This document shows positions 614 to 10,779 of a stretch of DNA of 12,124 nucleotides, piece by piece. A program made the translations under genes and the position numbers. The stretch is from a virus, in UHGV virus genome UHGV-0069955; one strand, given 5' to 3'. Each line of letters opens with the position of its first letter. Position 1 is the first letter of the stretch. Under the pieces are notes generated by a model. The model was not told the origin of the DNA, searched no databases, and saw only the letters and a program-made list of their open reading frames with translations.

Positions 614-1204
614 TCACTGGTCGCCTCCTTTGCGAAGCTGGTCGGCGAACAAACGTACACTAGACGCTTCACTGCGTAGAAACTTAACGGCATAATCAAA
701 ACCACCTCGTTCTGCGTCGTCTGCTCCGTTGTCGAGGTTATCTGCGTACATCTCTACCCCCTGCGCCCGCACTTCAGCCAGGAAAGCATCGGTGGTTGGG
801 GTTTCTGGAATGGCGTCTGGAATAACCTCTGAGTAGACGCGTTCCATTGCCGACTCCCATCCGTAGTAACAAGCCGAATAGCCGTCGCGCTGGTAGCCGT
901 GGTCTTCAACTCCACATCCCATGCCCTGGTCATGGTATTCAGGCTGATTGTCGGGATTAATGCAGTATTCAATGACCGACTTCATCCCCGCATTCTCCGC
1001 TGCCAGCGCAGTGCACTTGGCCTCAAGGTTATCAATCGTGATTCCAGCAGAAAGACACTCCCGCAACGCCGTTTCCAGTTTTGATTCAAGTTCACCGAAC
1101 TTACGGACAAGATATTCAGCGTTTGTTTCGTTAACATTTAAATCTCGGGGGATGCATTTACCTTTCAGAAAACCATTCATCTCAATTAGTGACATTTGTT
1201 TCAT
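614..1204 (-). CDS. Hypothetical early accessory protein (196 aa from ATG at 1204; ORF track extends to a GTG at 1222)
   Basis: Long ORF. The ATG at 1204 forms an ATGA overlap with the stop of the upstream small ORF (1201-1203). No motif I recognise; acidic C-terminal half. Confidence 0.5.
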
Positions 1205-1365
1205 TTCTTCCCACTCCGCCACATAGCATTCAGATATTTGTTGTCATTAACAGAGCCGAAACTATTTCTCTTAAGCAATTCCTCTCTCGATGGCATTGGC
1301 TTTACGCGTTGGCGAATAATCATTTCTGCCGGAAGAATGCCGGGATTGTATGCAAGTCCTCTCAT
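1201..1365 (-). CDS. Small hypothetical protein (54 aa from ATG at 1365; in-frame alternative ATG at 1383)
   Basis: GAGGAA Shine-Dalgarno 8 nt upstream of the ATG at 1365. The frame is open back to 1518 but that stretch overlaps the 98-aa gene. Stop overlaps the start of the downstream gene (ATGA). Confidence 0.3.
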
Positions 1366-1375
1366 GGTAAATTCC

Positions 1376-1672
1376 TCAGTCATTACTGATAGCGCCATAG
1401 CGTGAGCGGTAATTACGCAGGCGCGGGTCGATATATTCAGGGAAGTGGGTATATGTTGCTTTGCGGAATGGTCGGATTGATGTCTGGTAAATTCGCTCGC
1501 GTTCTTCTTTCTCTGCAAGCCATATACAGTGGCGAAATTCCTTTTCCTCTTTCGTTTCCTGCGGTAGCGACATTATCCGATCGTAGTTTTTTCTGAATTT
1601 ATCCAGCACCTCCGATACGGAATTGCCGGAACAGCGGCGCGCGTCATCCGCACCATACAAAGGCGCTGGCAT
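1376..1672 (-). CDS. Hypothetical protein, 98 aa
   Basis: ATG at 1672 preceded by an AGGAG Shine-Dalgarno; begins 14 nt after the stop of the upstream HNH gene. Charged/basic protein with no recognisable catalytic motif. Confidence 0.5.
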
Positions 1673-1685
1673 GATTTTCTCCTGA

Positions 1686-2165
1686 TTAAATTGCGTGAAT
1701 AGCGTGACGAGGGAAGGGGAGAGTTACTGGTTCCTCGTCTGGGTAGATAGGTTTGTTATGTTTGTGCCACTCGACATGGCATGACTTGCAGAGCCACATC
1801 ACATCGGTTGGTTTGCTGTAGTCGCAGTGGTGCGCCTGTGGTTTACATTCTGATCCGCAGCACTCACATTGTGGTGGTCGGATTAGCTTACCGTCGCGCA
1901 AAAAATTACCCACGATGATGTGGGCTTTTCTTTTCCATGGGTTGCTCTGAATGAACCGCTTTTTGGCTGCGTTACACCGTCCTCTGCCGCGTTCCGATGA
2001 TTGATATTCTCTCCTTGCTGATACTCGATGTGGCAATCCCGCGCGCTCTTTGTCGTATTCAGCCAGGCAAGCCCGGCAAGCGGCAGTTAATCCATCTCTG
2101 GATGCTCTTCTGATTTGAAAGTCCCTTTCTTCCTTCTGTTGATGGCATCTTGAGCAGATTTTCAT
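1686..2165 (-). CDS. HNH-family endonuclease with N-terminal Cys-rich (zinc-ribbon-like) region, 159 aa
   Basis: C-terminal ...AHHCDYSKPTDVMWLCKSCHVEWHKH fits the HNH motif (HH...D...LC..CH..H). N-terminal CSRCH...CRAC Cys pairs. AGGAG Shine-Dalgarno overlaps the SSB stop codon. Confidence 0.6.
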   Translation of the reverse strand: MKICSRCHQQKEERDFQIRRASRDGLTAACRACLAEYDKERAGLPHRVSARREYQSSERGRGRCNAAKKRFIQSNPWKRKAHIIVGNFLRDGKLIRPPQCECCGSECKPQAHHCDYSKPTDVMWLCKSCHVEWHKHNKPIYPDEEPVTLPFPRHAIHAI

Positions 2166-2174
2166 ATTCAGCTC

Positions 2175-2648
2175 CTAGAACGGAATATCCGAATCGTCGA
2201 AGTTCATAGGTGGTTCGCTGTGATTTCCATGCTGCTGAGGTTGCTGTCTTTGTTGCTGACCGTTATTTCGCTGAGGTGAAGACTGTTCATTGCCTCCTTG
2301 CTTGCCACCAAGCATTTGCATGGTTCCACCAACGCCCACGATGACTTCGGTAGTGAACCTATCCTGTCCGCTTTGATCCTGCCATTTTCTTGTCCGTAAT
2401 TTGCCTTCAAGATAAACCTCAGAGCCTTTTCGCAGATATTCGCTGGCAATTTCTGCCAGTTTCCCGCTCATTACCACACGGTGCCACTCCGTCTGCTCCT
2501 TTTGCTCTCCAGTTTGCTTATCACGCCATTGTTCTGACGTAGCAACTGTAAGGTTTGCAAATGCCGTTCCTGATGGTGAGTATCGAACTTCCGGGTCTTG
2601 TCCTACCCGACCAAGGATAATCACCTTATTTATCCCGCGAGAACTCAT
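2175..2648 (-). CDS. ssb: Single-stranded DNA-binding protein (SSB), 157 aa from ATG at 2648
   Basis: [27 protein letters not shown]...TEWHRVV...Gly/Gln-rich linker...C-terminal acidic tail DDSDIPF is the classic bacterial/phage SSB OB-fold and tail. The ATG overlaps the upstream HNH stop (ATGA). ORF track's 2657 start is an upstream GTG. Confidence 0.9.
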
Positions 2649-3112
2649 TTGCTCCACCTCTTGCCAGTTTTTATGTTGCTTATAATTGATTGAGATACAC
2701 CCATGTCTTTTGCTATCTTGTACTGACTCTCTTTTTCAGAGAGTCTTTTCCTAATTTCTATAACCTGCCACTCTGTTAATTTTGCACCATGATGAGCATG
2801 ACCTTTCTTGGCTCCACGATGCCTTCCTTTTGCTATCTTGTCGTCCATGTTTTCTTGCGCGCTACCTAAAAAGAGATGTTCAGGATTAACGCAGCATGGG
2901 TTATCGCATTTGTGGCAAACCATCTTCCCAGATGGAATGGGGGAGTGATAAAGCTCAAAAGCAACACGATGAGAAAGCATTGTTACGCCAAAGGCTACAA
3001 ATTTTGTGTATCCTCCTTTGTTTTTTGAATAGGTAGACTCCCAGCAACCTGTTGTTTCATTAACTTTGTAGCTGGACTCGAATCTTTTAATAATTCCGTC
3101 CAAGTGAGACAT
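2645..3112 (-). CDS. HNH endonuclease (HNH_3-type) with C-terminal helix-turn-helix, homing-endonuclease-like, 155 aa
   Basis: [17 protein letters not shown]...[12 protein letters not shown]...[26 protein letters not shown] is the HNH_3 signature. C-terminal [42 protein letters not shown] looks like an HTH. ATG directly follows the SSAP stop (TAAATG). Confidence 0.75.
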
Positions 3113-3820
3113 TTATGCCGCCTGTTTTAGTTCGTTAACTCTGATGTTCATTACCTGAACGCATTTAGCCTGCGCCTCCTCGTTGCCAGCCATTAATTGC
3201 CAGTCACGCTGATAACGCTCGATGAGTTTTTTCTTGTCAGTTTCTGTTGACGCATAATCGCTGAAGTCTTTCAGGATTTGTTCGCAGTCAACCGATGGAG
3301 ATTTCTGGTTGGTATTTTCTGGTGATGGTTTGTTATCTGATGCTGGGATTGCCCATCCAGGCAGCGATGGAGGGAGCCAGTAAAATCCTGTTCCATCCTT
3401 CAGTTTTGCCCTGTGCCACCCCTGCTTTTTATCGAGAGATGTTTGTGCAAAACCTTCCTCAAGGTTATACAGATACCGACCGATTCCCCACTGAACGGCA
3501 GCACGCTTCATTGCACCTGAACGACCACCTTTGACGGCTTCTACCTGCGTGTTTTCAGCAGCATCCCATTTGGTTACCCATTCGGAATCAATCTTGATTG
3601 ATATGCCGCATTCAACTCCGCCGTTGTTGGGAATATCGCGGTATTCATTGCGCCATCCTGCTTTGCCGCAAACATCGTCCAGGCGTTTCATGATTGCCCG
3701 GTTCGTGACATAAGCCAGCACCATAGCCCACACCTTGCCATCGCGTGTTTTACCGCTTTGCTGTATTCGCCATTCGATATCTTCAGGGCTGAATGGCTCA
3801 TCGAATTTGTTCAAATCCAT
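3113..3820 (-). CDS. Rad52-like single-strand annealing protein (phage recombinase, Sak-like), 235 aa
   Basis: ...GISIKIDSEWVTKWDAAENTQVEAVKGGRSGAMKRAAVQWGIGRYLYNLEEGF carries the KRAAV.(F/W)GIGRYLY hallmark I associate with phage Rad52/22-family SSAPs. Sits where lambda has bet. GAGGTG Shine-Dalgarno. Confidence 0.7.
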   Translation of the reverse strand: MDLNKFDEPFSPEDIEWRIQQSGKTRDGKVWAMVLAYVTNRAIMKRLDDVCGKAGWRNEYRDIPNNGGVECGISIKIDSEWVTKWDAAENTQVEAVKGGRSGAMKRAAVQWGIGRYLYNLEEGFAQTSLDKKQGWHRAKLKDGTGFYWLPPSLPGWAIPASDNKPSPENTNQKSPSVDCEQILKDFSDYASTETDKKKLIERYQRDWQLMAGNEEAQAKCVQVMNIRVNELKQAA

Positions 3821-3828
3821 AATTCACC

Positions 3829-3999
3829 TCAGAATGGACACGGCCCAAGAAAATAACGCTGATTTAATACTTCGACTCGGGACAAATTAAGGCATACCCG
3901 CATTCCTTCGCGGTCGCCATTATGGCGATACCAGAGAGCTTTCTGCGTGTACATGCGTCTCTGTAACTTGCTCTCCTTCACTGTGGTTGCAAGTGACAT
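3829..3999 (-). CDS. Small hypothetical protein, 56 aa (MSLATTVKESKLQRRMYTQKALWYRHNGDREGMRVCLNLSRVEVLNQRYFLGPCPF)
   Basis: Not in the ORF track (<60 aa). ATG at 3999 with an AGGAG Shine-Dalgarno 7 nt upstream. Overlaps the next small ORF by 80 nt in another frame, so only one of the two may be real. Confidence 0.35.
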   Translation of the reverse strand: MSLATTVKESKLQRRMYTQKALWYRHNGDREGMRVCLNLSRVEVLNQRYFLGPCPF

Positions 4000-4078
4000 G
4001 AATATCTCCTTCGTTACCGATTAATTCTTTCATCTGACGAATGAATTCTTCGTCTGACCAGTTATCTGTAAAACTCAT
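3920..4078 (-). CDS. Small hypothetical protein, 52 aa (MSFTDNWSDEEFIRQMKELIGNEGDIHVTCNHSEGEQVTETHVHAESSLVSP)
   Basis: Not in the ORF track. ATG at 4078 overlaps the stop of the Kil-like ORF (ATGA). Weak AGGAA Shine-Dalgarno. Acidic. Confidence 0.3.
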   Translation of the reverse strand: MSFTDNWSDEEFIRQMKELIGNEGDIHVTCNHSEGEQVTETHVHAESSLVSP

Positions 4079-4227
4079 TTCCTGCGATACCACGGAAGGT
4101 TGATAGCTGATTTCATCGCTTTATTTGCTTCAAGCCACATTTTGGAATCACCAATAAATCTGGCTATTACTGCTTTGTTTTGTGCTGCACGAAGCATCTG
4201 GTGATTGATGGCTATTTCATTGCGCAT
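4075..4227 (-). CDS. Kil-like small protein (candidate host cell-division inhibitor), 50 aa
   Basis: MRNEIAINHQMLRAAQNKAVIARFIGDSKMWLEANKAMKSAINLPWYRRK. The ...ARFIGDSKMW... core resembles lambda Kil (...ATFIGDEKMF...) as I recall it. GGAGG Shine-Dalgarno 5 nt upstream. Position (between CIII-like and the recombinase) matches lambda kil. Confidence 0.45.
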   Translation of the reverse strand: MRNEIAINHQMLRAAQNKAVIARFIGDSKMWLEANKAMKSAINLPWYRRK

Positions 4228-4346
4228 AACGCCTCCAGTTGTTTCTTTGCTGCTCTGATTAATTGTTTAACTCGGCGTGATAATTCAGATTCGTGCGGGT
4301 AGAAAGCGGACATGACGCCGCTACCCGCGAGCTGAAAGTGCATCAT
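4212..4346 (-). CDS. CIII-like small protein (candidate FtsH-inhibitor family), 44 aa
   Basis: MMHFQLAGSGVMSAFYPHESELSRRVKQLIRAAKKQLEALCAMK. Resembles lambda CIII (..AIAG.PV.....SESLLERITRKLRDGWKRL) in the AG...ESxL...R..K.L region. AAGGAG Shine-Dalgarno 6 nt upstream. The upstream part of the 79-aa track ORF is rejected because it spans the terminator at 4412-4436. Confidence 0.45.
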   Translation of the reverse strand: MMHFQLAGSGVMSAFYPHESELSRRVKQLIRAAKKQLEALCAMK

Positions 4347-4411
4347 GGGTAACTCCTTATATTTGATTGCATAACGAAAACGCCTCGAGTGAAGCGTTAT
4401 TGGTATGCATA

Positions 4412-4436
4412 TAAAAAAGCCCTCACACTGGAGGGC
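4412..4436 (-). terminator. Rho-independent terminator on the leftward transcript (tL-like), upstream of the cIII/kil genes
   Basis: Minus strand reads GCCCTC-cagtgt-GAGGGC followed by TTTTTTAT (plus strand gccctc 4419-4424, gagggc 4431-4436, A-tract 4412-4418). An N-antiterminated pL transcript would read through it. Confidence 0.6.
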
Positions 4437-4498
4437 AAAGAAGATTTCCAATAATCAGAACAAGTCGGCTCCTGTTTAGTTACGAGCGACATTGCTCC

Positions 4499-4526
4499 GT
4501 GTATTCACTCGTTGGAATGAATACAC
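4499..4526. other. Perfect 9-bp inverted repeat (stem-loop/possible protein binding site) in the intergenic region
   Basis: gtgtattca (4499-4507), 10-nt loop, tgaatacac (4518-4526). No clean U-tract on either strand. Confidence 0.4.
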
Positions 4527-4570
4527 AGTGCAGTGTTTATTCTGTTGTTAGTGCCAAAAATAAAGGCCGA

Positions 4571-5194
4571 CTATGCGGACTCGGAAGGAAGTCCAATCAT
4601 CTTATTCAAATCTTCTACCCGTAAAGCAGGAAGTGCTGTACTTGCTTTGTCTGCTTCTTTTGGTAGCAATTCTTTGCTTTCAGGCCAAACTTCAATAAGT
4701 CGCTTAACTGTTGTGACTGAGTTCAAAGCAGCCCATACATTTGATTCGATATCCTTTTTCTTGGCTTCAAGTTTTTGTTGCAATGCGCAGATTTCATCAA
4801 ACCTTTTTGTTATTTCGTGTTCTGCATCAAACATGCATTTATCTTTGGTTGGAGTAGGGAGCAATATATCTTCGCCGTTGCCGTCTTTCCCATATGAATG
4901 CCATCCAACCCTTCTGCCAGATACAGTCAGATAAATTGAAGTAGAACGAACATCGTATGAGTAAAATGAACATCCCATCTTTTCAAGTTCTTCACTTATA
5001 GCTACTAACCTGGATGATAACTGATCCACTTCCTCAGTTTTCTTTTTACCGCCAAACGCAATAACTCTGGCGTCAAGTGCAAGCTGGTTCTTTAACTTTG
5101 TTACTTCTTCAAGTTCAGTGAAAACCCCAGACTTAATTAAAGCGTTACGAGCGATTTTCTCTTTCATTCTCGTAGTTAAGCGGATTGATGACAT
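4571..5194 (-). CDS. Hypothetical low-GC accessory (moron) protein, 207 aa from ATG at 5194
   Basis: Strong GAGAGGAA Shine-Dalgarno 5 nt upstream of the ATG at 5194 (track's 5209 start is TTG). Visibly AT-rich relative to the lambda-like flanks. Translation MSSIRLTTRMKEKIARNALIKSG... is Lys/Glu-rich with no motif I recognise. Confidence 0.6.
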   Translation of the reverse strand: MSSIRLTTRMKEKIARNALIKSGVFTELEEVTKLKNQLALDARVIAFGGKKKTEEVDQLSSRLVAISEELEKMGCSFYSYDVRSTSIYLTVSGRRVGWHSYGKDGNGEDILLPTPTKDKCMFDAEHEITKRFDEICALQQKLEAKKKDIESNVWAALNSVTTVKRLIEVWPESKELLPKEADKASTALPALRVEDLNKMIGLPSESA

Positions 5195-5251
5195 ATTAAT
5201 TCCTCTCAAATAAGTGGTTTGCTGCGAAAGTAAATACGCTTAAGTTACCTG

Positions 5252-5389
5252 TTATTTATCCCACCAAGTTCCGTATCTATCTATCCAGTTACACCAATCA
5301 TCGACACTCCATTTTGTTGTGTCGCATTTTGGCAACTGGCATGAATATCTACCTTCTTTGTAAAGTCGGCGTTTGACTTTCTTGAGCAT
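5252..5389 (-). CDS. Small Cys/Trp-rich hypothetical protein, 45 aa (MLKKVKRRLYKEGRYSCQLPKCDTTKWSVDDWCNWIDRYGTWWDK)
   Basis: Not in the ORF track. ATG at 5389 with a GAGGTG Shine-Dalgarno that overlaps the N stop codon. Cys residues spaced in a zinc-ribbon-like pattern. Confidence 0.35.
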   Translation of the reverse strand: MLKKVKRRLYKEGRYSCQLPKCDTTKWSVDDWCNWIDRYGTWWDK

Positions 5390-5397
5390 GGCTCACC

Positions 5398-5730
5398 TCA
5401 ATCGTAATAAGCTGGAATTGATTTTCCGCGTTGCTTCTGGCGACCAACACAAGTCACACCCATTTCACTGCGTGGCTTGCTGTACCATGTGCGCTGATTC
5501 TTGCGTTCAATACGTTGCAGGTTGCTTTCAATCTGTTCGTGGTATTCAGCCAGCACCGTAAGGTCTATCGGATTCAGTGCGCTTTCTACTCGTGATTTCG
5601 GTTTGCGATTCAGCGAGAGAATAGGGCGGTTAACTGGTTTTGCGCTTACCCCAACCAACAGGGGATTTGCTGCTTTCCATTGAGCCTGTTTCTCTGCGCG
5701 ACGTTCGCGGCGGCGTGCTTGTGCATCCAT
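5398..5730 (-). CDS. N: Antitermination protein N (lambda-type), 110 aa from ATG at 5730
   Basis: MDAQARRRERRAEKQAQWKAANPLLVGVSAKPVNRPILSLNRKPKSRVESALNPIDLTVLAEYHEQIESNLQRIERKNQRTWYSKP... is near-identical to lambda N as I recall it, including the Arg-rich boxB-binding motif. AGGAG Shine-Dalgarno upstream. Track's 5820 start is an upstream extension. Confidence 0.92.
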   Translation of the reverse strand: MDAQARRRERRAEKQAQWKAANPLLVGVSAKPVNRPILSLNRKPKSRVESALNPIDLTVLAEYHEQIESNLQRIERKNQRTWYSKPRSEMGVTCVGRQKQRGKSIPAYYD

Positions 5731-5840
5731 CTGGATTCTCCTGTCAGTTAGCTTTGAGTAACGCGCCGTGATGCTTATCTCCACGGTTGCTGTCTTGCAG
5801 CTGCATTTCGCGCTACTCAAAGCTTTCTGCTTTGAATGCC

Positions 5841-6165: not shown

Positions 6166-6522
6166 TTAGTGAGGTAGTGATGGCATCATTTTTATTATTA
6201 ACCCAACACCAGTTCCAACGGCTGCAAGAACTGAACCAATAATAGCCATGGCTTGGAGTCTCATTGCGCTGTGAAGTTCTGCTTTTGCATTAGCTATGTC
6301 TGTTTTAACAGATTCTACATTGGCAGATGTTGCATAGTTAGACTTAATTACAGCGATGTCGGTCGCCATGGTTGCGACTTTATCTTCAAGAATTTTTATG
6401 CGCTGTAACATGTCACCACCTCCACCGTTACCACCACCATATGTCTCATCATTATGGTGGTTATGTGGAAAATTATCAACTTTACTCCTGTCAAGAGGCA
6501 CAGCGTACAGATGTCGTTTCAT
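6166..6522 (-). CDS. Hypothetical tail-anchored membrane protein, 118 aa (gene B of the cI-linked cassette)
   Basis: N-terminal His/Gly-rich low-complexity stretch (NFPHNHHNDETYGGGNGGGGD), central amphipathic/coiled-coil-like segment (MLQRIKILEDKVATMATDIAVIKSNYATSANVESVKTDIANAKAELHSAMRLQ), and one C-terminal hydrophobic helix (AMAIIGSVLAAVGTGVGLIIKMM). ATG at 6522 overlaps the gene A stop (ATGA). Confidence 0.55.
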   Translation of the reverse strand: MKRHLYAVPLDRSKVDNFPHNHHNDETYGGGNGGGGDMLQRIKILEDKVATMATDIAVIKSNYATSANVESVKTDIANAKAELHSAMRLQAMAIIGSVLAAVGTGVGLIIKMMPSLPH

Positions 6523-6959
6523 TCCTTATCTCTGTTCGGGGTGGTTGAAATAAGAGCGCATTTTTTTTCATCAATAACTTCGCTAAGATTACCATCAATG
6601 TCTTCAAAGATGCGATAAATTATGTCATATGTTCCTGTTTCTATAAGTTTGATGTTTTTAACGAAAAGATATGTGCCAACCACAACATATTTTTCATTGA
6701 CAGGAGAAAACATAAATGTTTGCAGTTGCTCTTGATTGCTAGAGATATCAGGTAAAACCGATTCTCCATTGAATACGACATCAAGTTCGGTAGTGTATTT
6801 TTTTTCGTGCTCGAAGTACATTATTGCAGTTAGGTAAAATGAGCCGGAACAAGGGTATTCTTCCGACACTATTATAGGATCTGGTGTCATAAAAGGAGTG
6901 ATTGCCAGCCCGGGTTTTACCGCCGTTGTGTAGATTGTTATTATTTTTTCTTCTCTCAT
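6519..6959 (-). CDS. Hypothetical soluble protein, 146 aa (gene A of the cI-linked cassette)
   Basis: ATG at 6959 with an AAGGA Shine-Dalgarno; starts 18 nt after the cI stop codon, so probably co-transcribed with cI. Very AT-rich coding sequence. No hydrophobic helix; beta-rich-looking composition. Confidence 0.6.
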   Translation of the reverse strand: MREEKIITIYTTAVKPGLAITPFMTPDPIIVSEEYPCSGSFYLTAIMYFEHEKKYTTELDVVFNGESVLPDISSNQEQLQTFMFSPVNEKYVVVGTYLFVKNIKLIETGTYDIIYRIFEDIDGNLSEVIDEKKCALISTTPNRDKE

Positions 6960-6977: not shown

Positions 6978-7694
<717 letters not shown>

Positions 7695-8436: not shown

Positions 8437-8598
8437 ATGACAAAACGTCGTAAGAAATACCAGGAAAAAGAAGAGATTCGACACCCTGATTCACCTGAGG
8501 GATTAGTGGTAGCCGCAGCAAATAACAGGGCGTTCGCAGAGCGCCTTGTTGGTGTTTACAGACTAGCCAAAGCAGGAGTGAAACATGGGCGTCGTTAA
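8437..8598 (+). CDS. Small basic hypothetical protein, 53 aa ([53 protein letters not shown])
   Basis: Not in the ORF track. ATG at 8437 with an AGGAG Shine-Dalgarno, in the position where lambda O starts. Its 3' end overlaps the O start by 14 nt in another frame. Confidence 0.35.
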   Translation: MTKRRKKYQEKEEIRHPDSPEGLVVAAANNRAFAERLVGVYRLAKAGVKHGRR

Positions 8599-9406
8599 GT
8601 TAGCTGATTACAGGCCTCAACTGGAGGTCGTGGAGCATCGCGTGGCAGATACCGAAGATGGTTTCATGCGCGTTGCTAACGAGATTACCGACAGTCTGCT
8701 GATGGCTGATTTAACCGTCCGGCAGTTGAAGGTGATGCTCGCTATCATGCGCAAGACATACGGATTCAATAAGCCGATGGATCGACTCACAAACACGCAG
8801 ATAGCAGCCATGACAGGTATTCATCACACTCATGTTTGCGCTGCCAAGCGCCAGCTTATTGAGCGTAAATTCCTCATTGCTGATGGCGTGAAAATCGGAG
8901 TGAACAAGGTGGTTTCTCAGTGGATTAGCCAGGACAGCTTAACATTAGCTAAAACAGCTAATAAAACATTAGCCAAGTCGGCTAATGGGTATAAGCCAAG
9001 TCAGCTAAACACAAAAGACAATATACAAAAGACAATAAATACAAATACCCCCTTACCCCCTAACGGGGGCGGCGATGGGCAGGTTAAACCTGAACGTCGC
9101 AAGGCAGAACGAATCGACTACGAATCCTTCCTGAACGCTTACAACACCGAAGTCGGTGACAGACTGCCACACGCTGTTGCGGTCAACGAGAAACGCAAAC
9201 GCCGCCTGAAGAAAATCATCCCGCAACTGAAAACGCCAAACGTGGACGGTTTCAGAGCGTATGTCAGGGCGTTTGTGCATCAGGCCAAGCCGTTTTACTT
9301 CGGAGACAACGACACGGGCTGGACGGCTGATTTTGATTACCTGCTGAGAGAAGACTCGTTAACGGGAGTTCGGGAAGGGAAGTTTGCAGACAGGGGGATT
9401 GCATGA
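8585..9406 (+). CDS. O: Replication initiator protein, O-like (273 aa)
   Basis: N-terminal ...[54 protein letters not shown] aligns with the lambda O iteron-binding domain (DDGYARLSNMLLEA...DLTKRQFKVLLAILRKTYGWNKPMDRITDSQLSEIT). C-terminal half differs from lambda O. AGGAG Shine-Dalgarno; stop overlaps the helicase start (ATGA). Confidence 0.85.
8924..9050. repeat. Candidate replication origin inside the O gene: four ~18-bp iterons (8924-9009) plus an A/T-rich stretch (9010-9050)
   Basis: attagccaggacagcttaa (8924-8942), cattagctaaaacagctaat (8943-8962), cattagccaagtcggctaat (8967-8986), tataagccaagtcagctaaa (8990-9009). Each has internal dyad symmetry TTAGCC...GGCTAA. Followed by acacaaaagacaatatacaaaagacaataaatacaaatacc. 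Same layout as ori-lambda but different iteron sequence. Confidence 0.7.
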
Positions 9407-10779
9407 GACAGGATATCGAAGCGAGCGTTATCGGTGGCCTGCTGATTGGTGGATTAACACCAACCGCCAGTGACGTTCTGGCAACGCTGGAGCCGGAAGC
9501 GTTTTCAATTCCGCTCTACCGGAAAGCCTTCGAGGTTATCCGCAAGCAGGCGCGAAACAGAAACCTAATCGACGCACTGATGGTTGCCGAGGCGTGCGGA
9601 GAGGAGCATTTCACGTCAATCCTGATGACCAGCAAAAACTGCCCGAGTGCCGCAAACCTGAAGGGATATGCCGGAATGGTCGCGGATAACTATCACCGCC
9701 GACTGGTGCTGGAAATCATGGATGAAATGCGTGAACCAATTCAGAGCGGAACCATCGACGCATCGAGTCAGGCGATGGATGAACTTGTAAAGCGTCTTTC
9801 AGCCATCAGAAAGCCCCGTGACGAGGTAAAACCTGTACGGTTAGGGGAAATCATTACTGACTACACTGACACGCTTGACAGGCGTCTGAGGAACGGAGAA
9901 GAGTCCGATACCCTGAAGACCGGAATCGAAGAACTTGATGCCATCACCGGAGGGATGAACGCGGAAGACCTGGTGATAATCGCTGCTCGTCCTGGTATGG
10001 GGAAAACCGAACTGGCGCTGAAGATTGCCGAAGGCGTTGCAAGCCGCGTTATTCCTGGTTCTGACGTCCGGCGCGGGGTATTGATTTTCTCAATGGAAAT
10101 GAGCGCATTGCAGATTGCAGAGCGAAGCATTGCCAACGCCGGGAGGATGTCGGTTAGTGTGCTGCGAAATCCTGCAGCGATGGATGACGAAGGCTGGGCG
10201 CGCGTTGCTAACGGCATGAGTCAGCTTGCAGATTTGGATGTATGGGTAGTCGATGCCTCGCGGTTATCGGTCGAAGAAATACGCTCAATCGCAGAACGGC
10301 ACAAACAGGAAAATCCAAACCTCTCACTCATCATGGTGGATTATCTTGGCCTGATTGAGAAGCCGAAAGCAGATCGCAACGACCTCGCAATTGCTCACAT
10401 CTCCGGAAGCCTTAAGGCGATGGCGAAAGACCTGAAAACGCCTGTGATCTCCCTAAGTCAGCTTTCGCGCGATGTTGAGAAGCGACCAAACAAACGCCCG
10501 ACAAACGCAGATTTGCGTGATTCAGGAAGCATTGAGCAGGACGCAGACTCAATCATCATGCTCTATCGGGAAGCGGTATATGACGAGAACAGTAGCGCCG
10601 CGCCATTTGCTGAAATCATCGTGACGAAAAACCGTTTTGGCTCGCTTGGTACGGTTTACCAGCGGTTCTGTAACGGACACTTTGTTGCATGTGACCAGGA
10701 TGAAGCCAGACAGATTTGCACAGCATCAAATGCACCTGCTGCGCGTGGCAGACGATATGCACAAGGGGCTGACGTATGA
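9403..10779 (+). CDS. DnaB-family replicative DNA helicase (458 aa)
   Basis: Walker [13 protein letters not shown], Walker B-like [11 protein letters not shown], and DnaB C-terminal motifs [42 protein letters not shown]-terminal domain resembles the DnaB N-terminus. Not a lambda P-type helicase loader. Confidence 0.9.

Follow-up and report, generated by a model that had tools for sequence, protein, structure and literature searches.

The DNA analyzed here, virus genome UHGV-0069955, is a stretch of 12,124 nucleotides (nt) that represents the immunity and early region of a lambdoid prophage and is referred to below as the window. Its early-left (pL) operon lies on the minus strand and carries, in order, N, DUF5484, Nmad5, cIII, kil, open reading frames (ORFs) in the position of arf, a single-strand annealing protein (annealase), an HNH_3 endonuclease, a single-stranded DNA-binding protein (SSB), a 159-amino acid (aa) protein and Abc2 (Table 1). 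We focused on the HNH_3 gene and on what it does between the annealase gene and ssb. A preliminary description of this DNA had reported the ORFs of these three genes, joined by TAAATG and ATGA junctions, with the HNH gene exactly at the annealase/ssb junction. All three ORFs are present on the minus strand at the reported positions and both junctions can be read directly in the sequence. The stop codon of the annealase gene (TAA, 3115-3113) abuts the start codon of the HNH gene (ATG, 3112-3110), and the HNH stop codon (TGA, 2647-2645) overlaps the ssb start codon (ATG, 2648-2646) in the ATGA at 2648-2645. The true start of ssb is this ATG at 2648; the GTG at 2657, with which the longest ORF opens, is not.

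Table 1. Features of the window discussed in the text, with related endonuclease genes of other loci in the last row
Feature	Position	Strand	Evidence or remark
HNH_3 (His-Me finger) endonuclease with C-terminal helix-turn-helix (HTH), 155 aa, putative free-standing homing endonuclease	2645-3112	minus	Pfam HNH_3, E 1.1e-13, above cut-off
Inserted cassette, 478 nt replacing 14 nt (GCAAGCAGAGGCGT) of the empty site, net +464 nt	2632-3109	minus	Alignments with Sf6, IME10 and HNH-less E. coli prophages
Recoded ssb codons 2-6, AGT TCT CGC GGG ATA (SSRGI) versus HNH-less GCA AGC AGA GGC GTA (ASRGV)	2633-2645	minus	Matched allele pairs
Shine-Dalgarno-like GAGGTGGAG for ssb, inside the 3' end of the HNH ORF	2652-2660	minus	Read from sequence
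Rad52/Rad22-family single-strand annealing protein, 235 aa, Sf6 gp28 type	3113-3820	minus	Pfam PF04098 Rad52_Rad22, E 5e-26; phrog_1097, E 3.5e-130
Last 21 nt of the annealase gene, GAACTAAAACAGGCGGCATAA (..ELKQAA and stop)	3113-3133	minus	Conserved in HNH-plus and HNH-minus alleles
SSB, 157 aa, oligonucleotide-binding (OB) fold, acidic C-terminal tail ..FDDSDIPF	2175-2648	minus	Pfam PF00436, E 2.9e-38; TIGR00621, E 3e-53, above cut-off
Zinc-ribbon HNH-like nuclease, 159 aa, Sf6 gp26 homologue	1686-2165	minus	phrog_2340 'endonuclease'
Abc2 anti-RecBCD protein, P22 type	1376-1672	minus	Pfam PF11043, E 4.1e-61, full length; phrog_656
56-aa ORF in P22 arf position, HK97 gp42-like	3829-3999	minus	phrog_1723, E 9.4e-36
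kil	4075-4227	minus	
cIII	within 4212-4451	minus	
Nmad5 protein	4571-5209	minus	Pfam, E 4e-72
DUF5484	5252-5389	minus	
N	5398-5820	minus	
cI, lambda-type	6978-7691	minus	
Phage_rep_O replication protein	8585-9406		Right-hand part of the window
DnaB-type helicase	9403-10779		Right-hand part of the window
ES18 gp47-type HNH_3	L109 (ES18) 1376-1897; L108 (103203_sal5) 1867-2259		

The HNH_3 domain named in the preliminary description is a significant Pfam match, to which a sub-threshold match with zf-His_Me_endon can be added. The C-terminal HTH proposed with it stays below the Pfam cut-off (HTH_38, E 1.6e-3, 18.5 bits versus 27) but is borne out by the structure model. The AlphaFold 2 model of the protein (predicted local distance difference test, pLDDT, 88) has a three-helix bundle at residues 114-149 (helices 114-125, 130-137 and 141-149), and in Foldseek it matches HTH domains. 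Structure prediction and fold search were used in place of sequence searches of the PDB, which returned nothing significant for the HNH protein, the annealase or the 159-aa protein. The best PDB folds are those of two homing endonucleases, I-PpoI and I-HmuI (Foldseek probability 1.0, E ~2e-3). In 41 homologues, down to 37% identity, the catalytic residues H67, N76, H79, N88 and D91 are invariant, as are C69 and C74 of the zinc cluster, with C66 nearly so. In PADLOC the protein matches the generic 'homing endonuclease' model alone (E 1.9e-7), and a role in a defence system was rejected on these grounds. A terminase-associated role in packaging was also rejected, because the gene does not neighbour the terminase or portal genes of the late operon but belongs to the pL operon, where it follows N, cIII and kil and precedes abc2. 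Its GC content is 40.6%, as compared to 48-49% in the flanking genes.

Comparison with related modules revealed that the HNH_3 gene is a sporadic and precise insertion, which forms an ORF of its own between two genes. In Sf6, IME10 and N7 the annealase TAA is joined directly to the ssb ATG, and the modules of these phages match the window in pieces that skip the HNH gene. The module measures 1646 nt with the gene and 1182 nt without it. A megablast search with the HNH DNA found no match in 50,697 phage records. We then counted the module in 5,426 complete E. coli genomes. Approximately 408 of them have the annealase-ssb module and at least 310 the exact empty junction, while the HNH gene occurs in 41 (45 places), with 99.1-100% identity and always annotated beside ssb. 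The gene is therefore missing from about 88% of otherwise near-identical modules and carried by about 10-12%. All but one of the 41 E. coli copies are full length (40 out of 41), the remaining one being truncated. Conservation of the HNH gene in all relatives with the same junctions, which the preliminary description had named, together with a lack of nuclease activity, as speaking against its proposal, was not found, with 41 genomes carrying the gene versus at least 310 empty ones. In E. coli E2348/69, two HNH copies lie at different chromosomal places, presumably in two prophages.

We compared HNH-plus alleles (the window, ECONIH4, 98195 and NCTC8623) with HNH-less alleles (Sf6, IME10, 0H18, W, SY3626 and 19451123) and found the two kinds interleaved across annealase and ssb backgrounds. 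The annealase gene of the window differs at only 2 out of 708 nt from that of HNH-less SY3626 and at 6-8 nt from those of the other HNH-plus alleles, and 98195 is closest to HNH-less 19451123. Downstream, the HNH gene is found on two ssb backbones approximately 25% apart, each of which has near-identical HNH-less counterparts. Along its own backbone the window ssb differs at about 70 of 283 nt from the other HNH-plus ssb genes, as compared to 11-17 nt from HNH-less 0H18, Sf6 and IME10. The prophage neighbours of the HNH-plus modules also vary (Nmad5 in the window, TolA-like in ECONIH4 and 98195, Ral in NCTC8623), and their repressors and immunity regions differ.

In matched pairs of HNH-plus and HNH-less alleles, the sole flanking difference lies at nt 4-16 of ssb. 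The HNH-plus strains 98195 and NCTC8623 share a 507-bp ssb allele with the HNH-less SY3626 and 19451123, from which they differ at 2-3 out of 490 nt, as opposed to 10 out of 14 positions at nt 4-17 (P-value ~1e-15, Fisher test). Most of this recoding is synonymous: the HNH-less MASRGV becomes MSSRGI in HNH-plus alleles, with codon-family switches at Ser (AGC to TCT) and Arg (AGA to CGC). The recoded start is present in 41 genomes and 45 places, the same counts as the HNH gene, and is always annotated 'ssb / HNH endonuclease'. A constructed junction composed of the annealase stop and the recoded ssb was found in none of the 5,426 complete E. coli genomes. We infer that the recoded codons 2-6 would render the HNH-plus allele immune to its own enzyme.

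Both edges of the insertion bear on translation. Upstream, the GAACTAAAACAGGCGGCATAA stretch at the end of the annealase gene varies at one position in some HNH-minus alleles, and it is also kept upstream of HNH homologues in ERF-type and Rad52-type annealases. It may correspond to the upstream half of the homing site and to the original translation-initiation region of ssb, which would now serve the HNH gene. The HNH gene starts at the very position where ssb starts in empty alleles, and would therefore have taken over the original initiation region. Downstream, the last HNH codons (AAG AGG TGG AGC AAA TGA) contain GAGGTGGAG, a strong Shine-Dalgarno-like sequence, whose equivalent AAAGGTGG is kept in all HNH homologues upstream of ssb and which probably serves the translation of ssb. 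We also observed that the ERF- and Rad52-family annealases located before HNH and ssb (3113-3165 in the window; ~3950-4000 in L003 and L008) share their last ~17 residues (..IR[IV][KN]ELKQAA and stop). This common tail may be either a shuffled partner-interaction tail or a shared recombination or homing flank.

The ssb gene of the window is chimeric. Up to nt 83 (2566-2648) it matches the common HNH-plus 507-bp allele at every position; the remainder is Sf6-type, with the crossover at nt 70-83. This looks like the footprint expected if the cassette, together with a tract of ~70-83 nt, had been copied into an Sf6-like module, but ordinary recombination would look the same. A stretch of ~70 nt of divergence from Sf6 at the 5' end of ssb was considered as a signature of the target and discarded, because the HNH-less 0H18 and SY3626 share nt 18-83 with the window sequence. 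This wider divergence is ordinary allelic mosaicism that HNH-less alleles also share.

Twelve out of twelve relatives examined with at least 51% identity lie directly upstream of ssb, with overlapping stop and start codons. They come from Cronobacter/Enterobacteriaceae and Citrobacter (74%), Vibrio phage 1.079.O (62%), Shewanella (60%) and metagenomic contigs (59-51%). The gene upstream of them can be a Rad52-type or ERF annealase, RdgC/FtsK_gamma, Sipho_Gp157 or a protein of unknown function, one of which adjoins a YqaJ exonuclease. Since the upstream gene varies while ssb stays, the constant partner of these HNH genes is ssb and not the annealase. For the 74% lineage, a megablast search with the ERF-HNH-ssb locus (L003) against the phage collection retrieved no close relative, and hence no HNH-less counterpart. 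Scans of IMG/VR and of GTDB species representatives returned 160 loci of the wider family without enlarging the ssb-linked clade. Of these loci, 158 hold true relatives (37-54% identity), and SSB is found within the flanks of 5 out of 160; two of these five loci hold the very gene of the window at 100% identity, which leaves 3 out of 158 true relatives. Relatives with ~40-46% identity occur in many unrelated phage contexts, often with two or three per genome in T7-like phages. Such scatter and multiple copies per genome are typical of homing endonuclease genes. Two others of the five loci with an SSB hold alphaproteobacterial relatives with 43-45% identity, which are located directly upstream of an ssb ORF, in Albimonas pacifica (L139, ~2501-3338) and in a Brevundimonas metagenome-assembled genome (L173, ~2501-3359), and the habit of residing at the ssb start may be older or wider than the clade with at least 51% identity.

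Vibrio phage 1.079.O provides a second case of a modified ssb start. Approximately 60 nt upstream of its HNH ATG lies an orphan ssb start, ATGGCATCACGCGGA (ATG GCA TCA CGC GGA, MASRG), while its functional ssb starts with the differently coded ATG AGT AGT AGA GGG (MSSRG). Because of this relic and of the recoded start, the Vibrio cassette appears to have entered at about codon 5-6 of ssb and to have brought replacement first codons. The codon-family switches (TCA to AGT, CGC to AGA) run in the opposite direction to those in E. coli. These two cases suggest that what matters is to differ from the local target, rather than to have a particular sequence. In another contig (L102) the HNH ORF begins with MASKG, possibly a captured ssb start.

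Our conclusion is that the HNH_3 gene is probably a free-standing homing endonuclease, at home in the 5' end of the phage ssb, and not a partner in recombination. The preliminary description had left the choice between a homing endonuclease that invaded the operon and a nuclease partner of the annealase; the sporadic distribution, the linkage to ssb and the recoded start favour the former and the evidence given below argues against the latter. According to this explanation, pL would drive transcription of the HNH gene along with the other early-left genes, and translation of the gene would begin right behind the annealase stop, in what was once the initiation region of ssb. If the cell also contains an HNH-less relative, as a co-infecting phage or a resident prophage, the enzyme would nick or cut near the junction between annealase stop and ssb start of the empty allele (..AAACAGGCGGCATAA/ATGGCAAGCAGAGGCGTAAAT..). 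Repair off the HNH-plus genome would then copy the cassette and a short flanking stretch of ssb into the relative. The HNH-plus allele would be protected both because the insert splits the site and because ssb codons 2-6 are recoded. The cost to the carrier would be low, as the 3' end of the cassette would provide ssb with a new Shine-Dalgarno sequence and start through the ATGA overlap. From the sequence polymorphism, we predict a site of approximately 35 bp around TAA/ATGGCAAGCAGAGGCGTAAAT; cleavage and drive are likewise deduced from the patterns described above.

Several observations weigh against this explanation. Codon 2 of ssb must begin with A because of the ATGA overlap, which makes one of the five codon changes obligatory. 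The perfect linkage between recoding and gene would also be expected from ordinary homologous recombination in the flanks, and the putative target site is derived from sequence polymorphism alone. An HNH-less chimeric ssb exists in strain 0H18, with the crossover at nt 109-125, and therefore such chimeric junctions also arise without the HNH gene. A conserved SSB-related function would likewise be consistent with the tight translational coupling and with an association that, down to 51% identity, has long been exclusively with ssb. Finally, a survey of lambdoid phages regards ES18 gp47, which is 35% identical to the HNH_3 protein and encoded after ssb, as a likely genuine nuclease of the recombination (Rec) module (PMC12315714).

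The closest parallel among characterized systems is T4 SegG, a free-standing homing endonuclease encoded between genes 32 and 59, which cleaves gene 32 of T2, the gene for the T4-type SSB, and co-converts flanking markers (PMC2988022). Essential promoters of gene 32 are embedded in segG (PMC2988022). Similarly, the HNH_3 gene is a free-standing cassette without a promoter that lies directly beside a phage SSB gene and would target this gene in relatives that lack the endonuclease. In both cases expression signals of the SSB gene reside inside the endonuclease ORF, namely promoters in segG and the putative Shine-Dalgarno sequence and start overlap here, and flanking SSB sequence is co-converted in T4 and, as the footprint in the window ssb may indicate, here. 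The two systems differ in the fold of the endonuclease (GIY-YIG in SegG, HNH/His-Me here), in the SSB, since gp32 and the bacterial-type OB-fold SSB belong to unrelated families, and in the phage, which is a virulent T-even phage in one case and a temperate lambdoid prophage in the other. Moreover, the activity of SegG has been demonstrated, whereas that of the HNH_3 protein is predicted. In its architecture the HNH_3 protein resembles I-HmuI of Bacillus phage SPO1 (PDB 1U3E), with a His-Me finger followed by a C-terminal HTH over an alignment of 152 columns. The identity is 15% and the template-modelling (TM) score ~0.38, low because the domains are differently oriented. Unlike the free-standing HNH_3 protein, I-HmuI is a nickase encoded by an intron in a DNA polymerase gene, and the zinc-binding Cys cluster (zf-His_Me_endon) is a feature of the HNH_3 protein that sets it apart. 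T4 mobA-E are free-standing HNH endonucleases too, but they belong to another HNH subfamily and have other targets (nrdB in the case of mobE).

An alternative is that the HNH_3 protein is a functional member of the Rec module, whose nicks, breaks or end processing feed single-stranded DNA to the annealase and SSB in place of lambda Exo or RecE. To weigh it, the composition of the module has to be considered. The preliminary description had proposed that lambda Red is replaced by a Rad52-like annealase and SSB, with no Exo- or RecE-like exonuclease in the window. Profile searches in Pfam and PHROG uphold the annealase, whose residues 4-136 match positions 7-153 of the 153 in PF04098 and which by this annealing domain appears to be of Rad52/Sak type. 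The SSB combines an OB-fold domain with an acidic C-terminal tip, as bacterial-type SSBs do, and was the only protein to gain a name from an NCBIfam scan. No lambda-Exo/YqaJ or RecE exonuclease was detected by Pfam and PHROG scans of ten ORFs of the early-left operon (614-5820), nor among eight further ORFs that were scanned. The replacement of Red therefore stands, but the picture was incomplete, as the operon also holds Abc2 and a second HNH-type nuclease directly downstream.

The module thus lacks the exonuclease that two-component Red or RecET systems have beside the annealase, and instead combines Abc2 with an annealase and without a phage exonuclease, as in the Abc2-dependent P22 system, with the qualification that its annealase is Rad52-type and not Erf. 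Abc1 was not detected. According to the model of Murphy and co-workers, which reportedly has structural support, P22 Abc2 binds RecC and hijacks RecBCD to deliver single-stranded DNA to the phage annealase. In the P22 model, Abc2 redirects host RecBCD, and end resection is thought to be supplied by the Abc2-modified enzyme (PMC9836394). Since Abc2 can redirect RecBCD in this way, the phage would need no exonuclease of its own, and the best reading is that its working system pairs annealase and SSB with host RecBCD redirected by Abc2, to which the separate 159-aa nuclease may contribute. Without the HNH_3 gene, the block is an Sf6-type annealase-SSB-nuclease-Abc2 module, 97-98% identical to those of Sf6, IME10 and N7, an identity that also applies to the annealase DNA by itself. 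In the comparison with Sf6, the annealase gene, the 3' part of ssb, the 159-aa nuclease gene and abc2 correspond in the same order to genes 28, 27, 26 and 25 (97-98% identity), while Sf6 lacks the HNH_3 cassette and its ssb start is not recoded. In a 2025 survey of 325 lambdoid phages, Rec modules were described as combinations of an annealing protein (SAP), SSB, a nuclease (Exo, RecE, DnaQ-like or HNH) and an anti-RecBCD protein (PMC12315714). The module of the window is itself one of the already catalogued Sf6-type lambdoid Rec modules.

The 159-aa protein is a second HNH-type nuclease, from a family unrelated to the HNH_3 gene. It has no Pfam match, but its structure model is confident (pLDDT 93) and its motifs comprise two CxxC pairs and HH..D..CxxCH..H. 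In 38 homologues C100, C103, H112, H113, D115, H130 and H134 are invariant, and C4, C7, C30, C33, C126 and C129 are conserved in at least 90%. The slot between ssb and abc2 that it occupies is variable, and can hold a gp26-type nuclease, a DnaQ/Rv2179c-like 3'-5' exonuclease or an ES18 gp47-type HNH_3 protein, or be empty. The presence of the HNH_3 gene upstream of ssb is independent of the content of this slot. Hybrid proteins that join parts of the 159-aa protein to SSB or exonuclease fragments also exist (P0131, P0134, P0143 and P0173).

A recombination role for the HNH_3 protein would account for its tight packing and translational coupling within the Rec module, for the constant position of its clade beside ssb in recombination or replication clusters, and for the lack of Exo or RecE in the window. 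It also has a precedent, because tightly packed HNH genes such as ES18 gp47, from the same HNH_3-HTH family, have been argued to be probable Rec members (PMC12315714). We nevertheless consider this role quite unlikely. About 88% of near-identical modules do without the gene, among them those of Sf6, IME10, N7 and HK75, all viable phages, and where present it pairs with two unrelated annealase families as well as with neighbours that are not annealases. It does not make up for lacking nucleases either, since it co-occurs with the gp26 type in the window and with DnaQ-like exonucleases in L003-L011, and is also missing from modules that have no nuclease at all. Furthermore, resection is already accounted for by Abc2 through RecBCD (PMC9836394), and a recombination role assigns no function to the recoded ssb start. 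As for the ES18 precedent, gp47 and gp33 of Salmonella phage 103203_sal5 share 35-36% identity (E 1e-24) with the HNH_3 protein and likewise occur in an annealase-SSB-Abc2 module. Unlike the gene in the window, which is upstream of ssb and overlaps its start, theirs are located downstream, between ssb and abc2. These similarities suggest that ES18 gp47 may also be a mobile endonuclease, and that the view of it as a Rec member deserves caution.

A further possibility is that a homing-type endonuclease is kept as a weapon. The ssb start of lambdoid rivals, be they phages or prophages, would be cut, perhaps the host ssb too, while the carrier is immune (marker exclusion or host takeover). The chromosomal ssb begins with ATGGCCAGCAGAGGCGTAAAC in 5,425 out of 5,426 E. 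coli genomes, which differs at 1 of 14 positions from the empty site of the phage, and the host gene may therefore carry half of the putative homing site. The ssb of HNH-plus alleles is recoded exactly where host and rival genes agree, and T4 SegG is known to cause the exclusion of gene-32 markers of T2 (PMC2988022). However, the host gene lacks the upstream half-site, which is the 3' end of the annealase gene, so that recognition may fail, and with only ~10-12% of modules carrying the gene any benefit has been too weak for fixation. We rate such a weapon as improbable, to the same degree as the recombination role; it largely overlaps with the homing endonuclease that we favour and differs from it in who benefits. 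A related proposal extends to the whole ssb-linked HNH clade, which would act as a weapon and driver of exchange where ssb is most conserved, keep competitors out and fix the point at which phages exchange their annealase and SSB modules. Host or rival ssb might be cut, because the host start is one mismatch away, if recognition is mainly on the ssb side. We regard this broader version as unlikely, if slightly less so. Very unlikely, in our view, is that the gene is an inactive relic or mosaic 'moron' shuffled by ordinary homologous recombination without present nuclease-driven mobility: recombination in the flanks alone could produce the same presence/absence and linkage, one of the 41 E. coli copies is truncated, a 119-aa fragment exists (P0007) and HNH-less chimeric ssb alleles occur, but catalytic and zinc-binding residues are invariant in 41 homologues down to 37% identity, 40 out of 41 E. 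coli copies are full length with at least 99.1% identity, and without selection against cleavage it is difficult to account for synonymous recoding packed into 14 nt.

Free-standing HNH homing endonucleases and this type of module were already known, and the locus is a clean but fairly ordinary case. In the searchable literature we found no HNH element described as targeting the ssb start, whether from lambdoid or from other temperate phages. The locus offers a testable example, in a temperate phage, of a probable homing endonuclease lineage dedicated to the ssb start, which brings along a ribosome-binding site to replace that of ssb, together with recoded first codons. Within the Rec module, this lineage marks a boundary of recombination. 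The Rad52-type system should not be credited with the middle gene as its 'missing exonuclease', and this gene can be omitted when annealase and SSB are mined for recombineering. More generally, tight packing alone is no proof that HNH genes belong to lambdoid Rec modules.

Two observations concern the annealase gene. A stretch of 33 nt (3641-3673) is 100% identical to a sequence annotated as 'CRISPR' in E. coli JNE151685, apparently a spacer against this gene. In several E. coli O111:H8 genomes, the annealase gene is interrupted by, or adjoins, the IS3-family element IS1203.

Elsewhere in the early-left operon, two small overlapping ORFs (3920-4093 and 3829-3999) take the place of P22 arf, the second of which was scanned against profiles. 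It has no match in Pfam, including Phage_Arf, while the small ORFs at the same position in loci L003-L007 do match Phage_Arf. The Nmad5 ('nucleotide modification associated domain 5') protein has no PADLOC match, and its gene is low in GC (39%). The right-hand part of the window also contains cro, a cII-like gene and NinB. Directly downstream of cI, two overlapping ORFs on the minus strand (6166-6522 and 6519-6959) encode proteins of 118 and 146 aa that match nothing in Pfam or PADLOC. The pair occupies the position of rexA and rexB in lambda, and may constitute an uncharacterised cassette for exclusion or defence that the prophage expresses.

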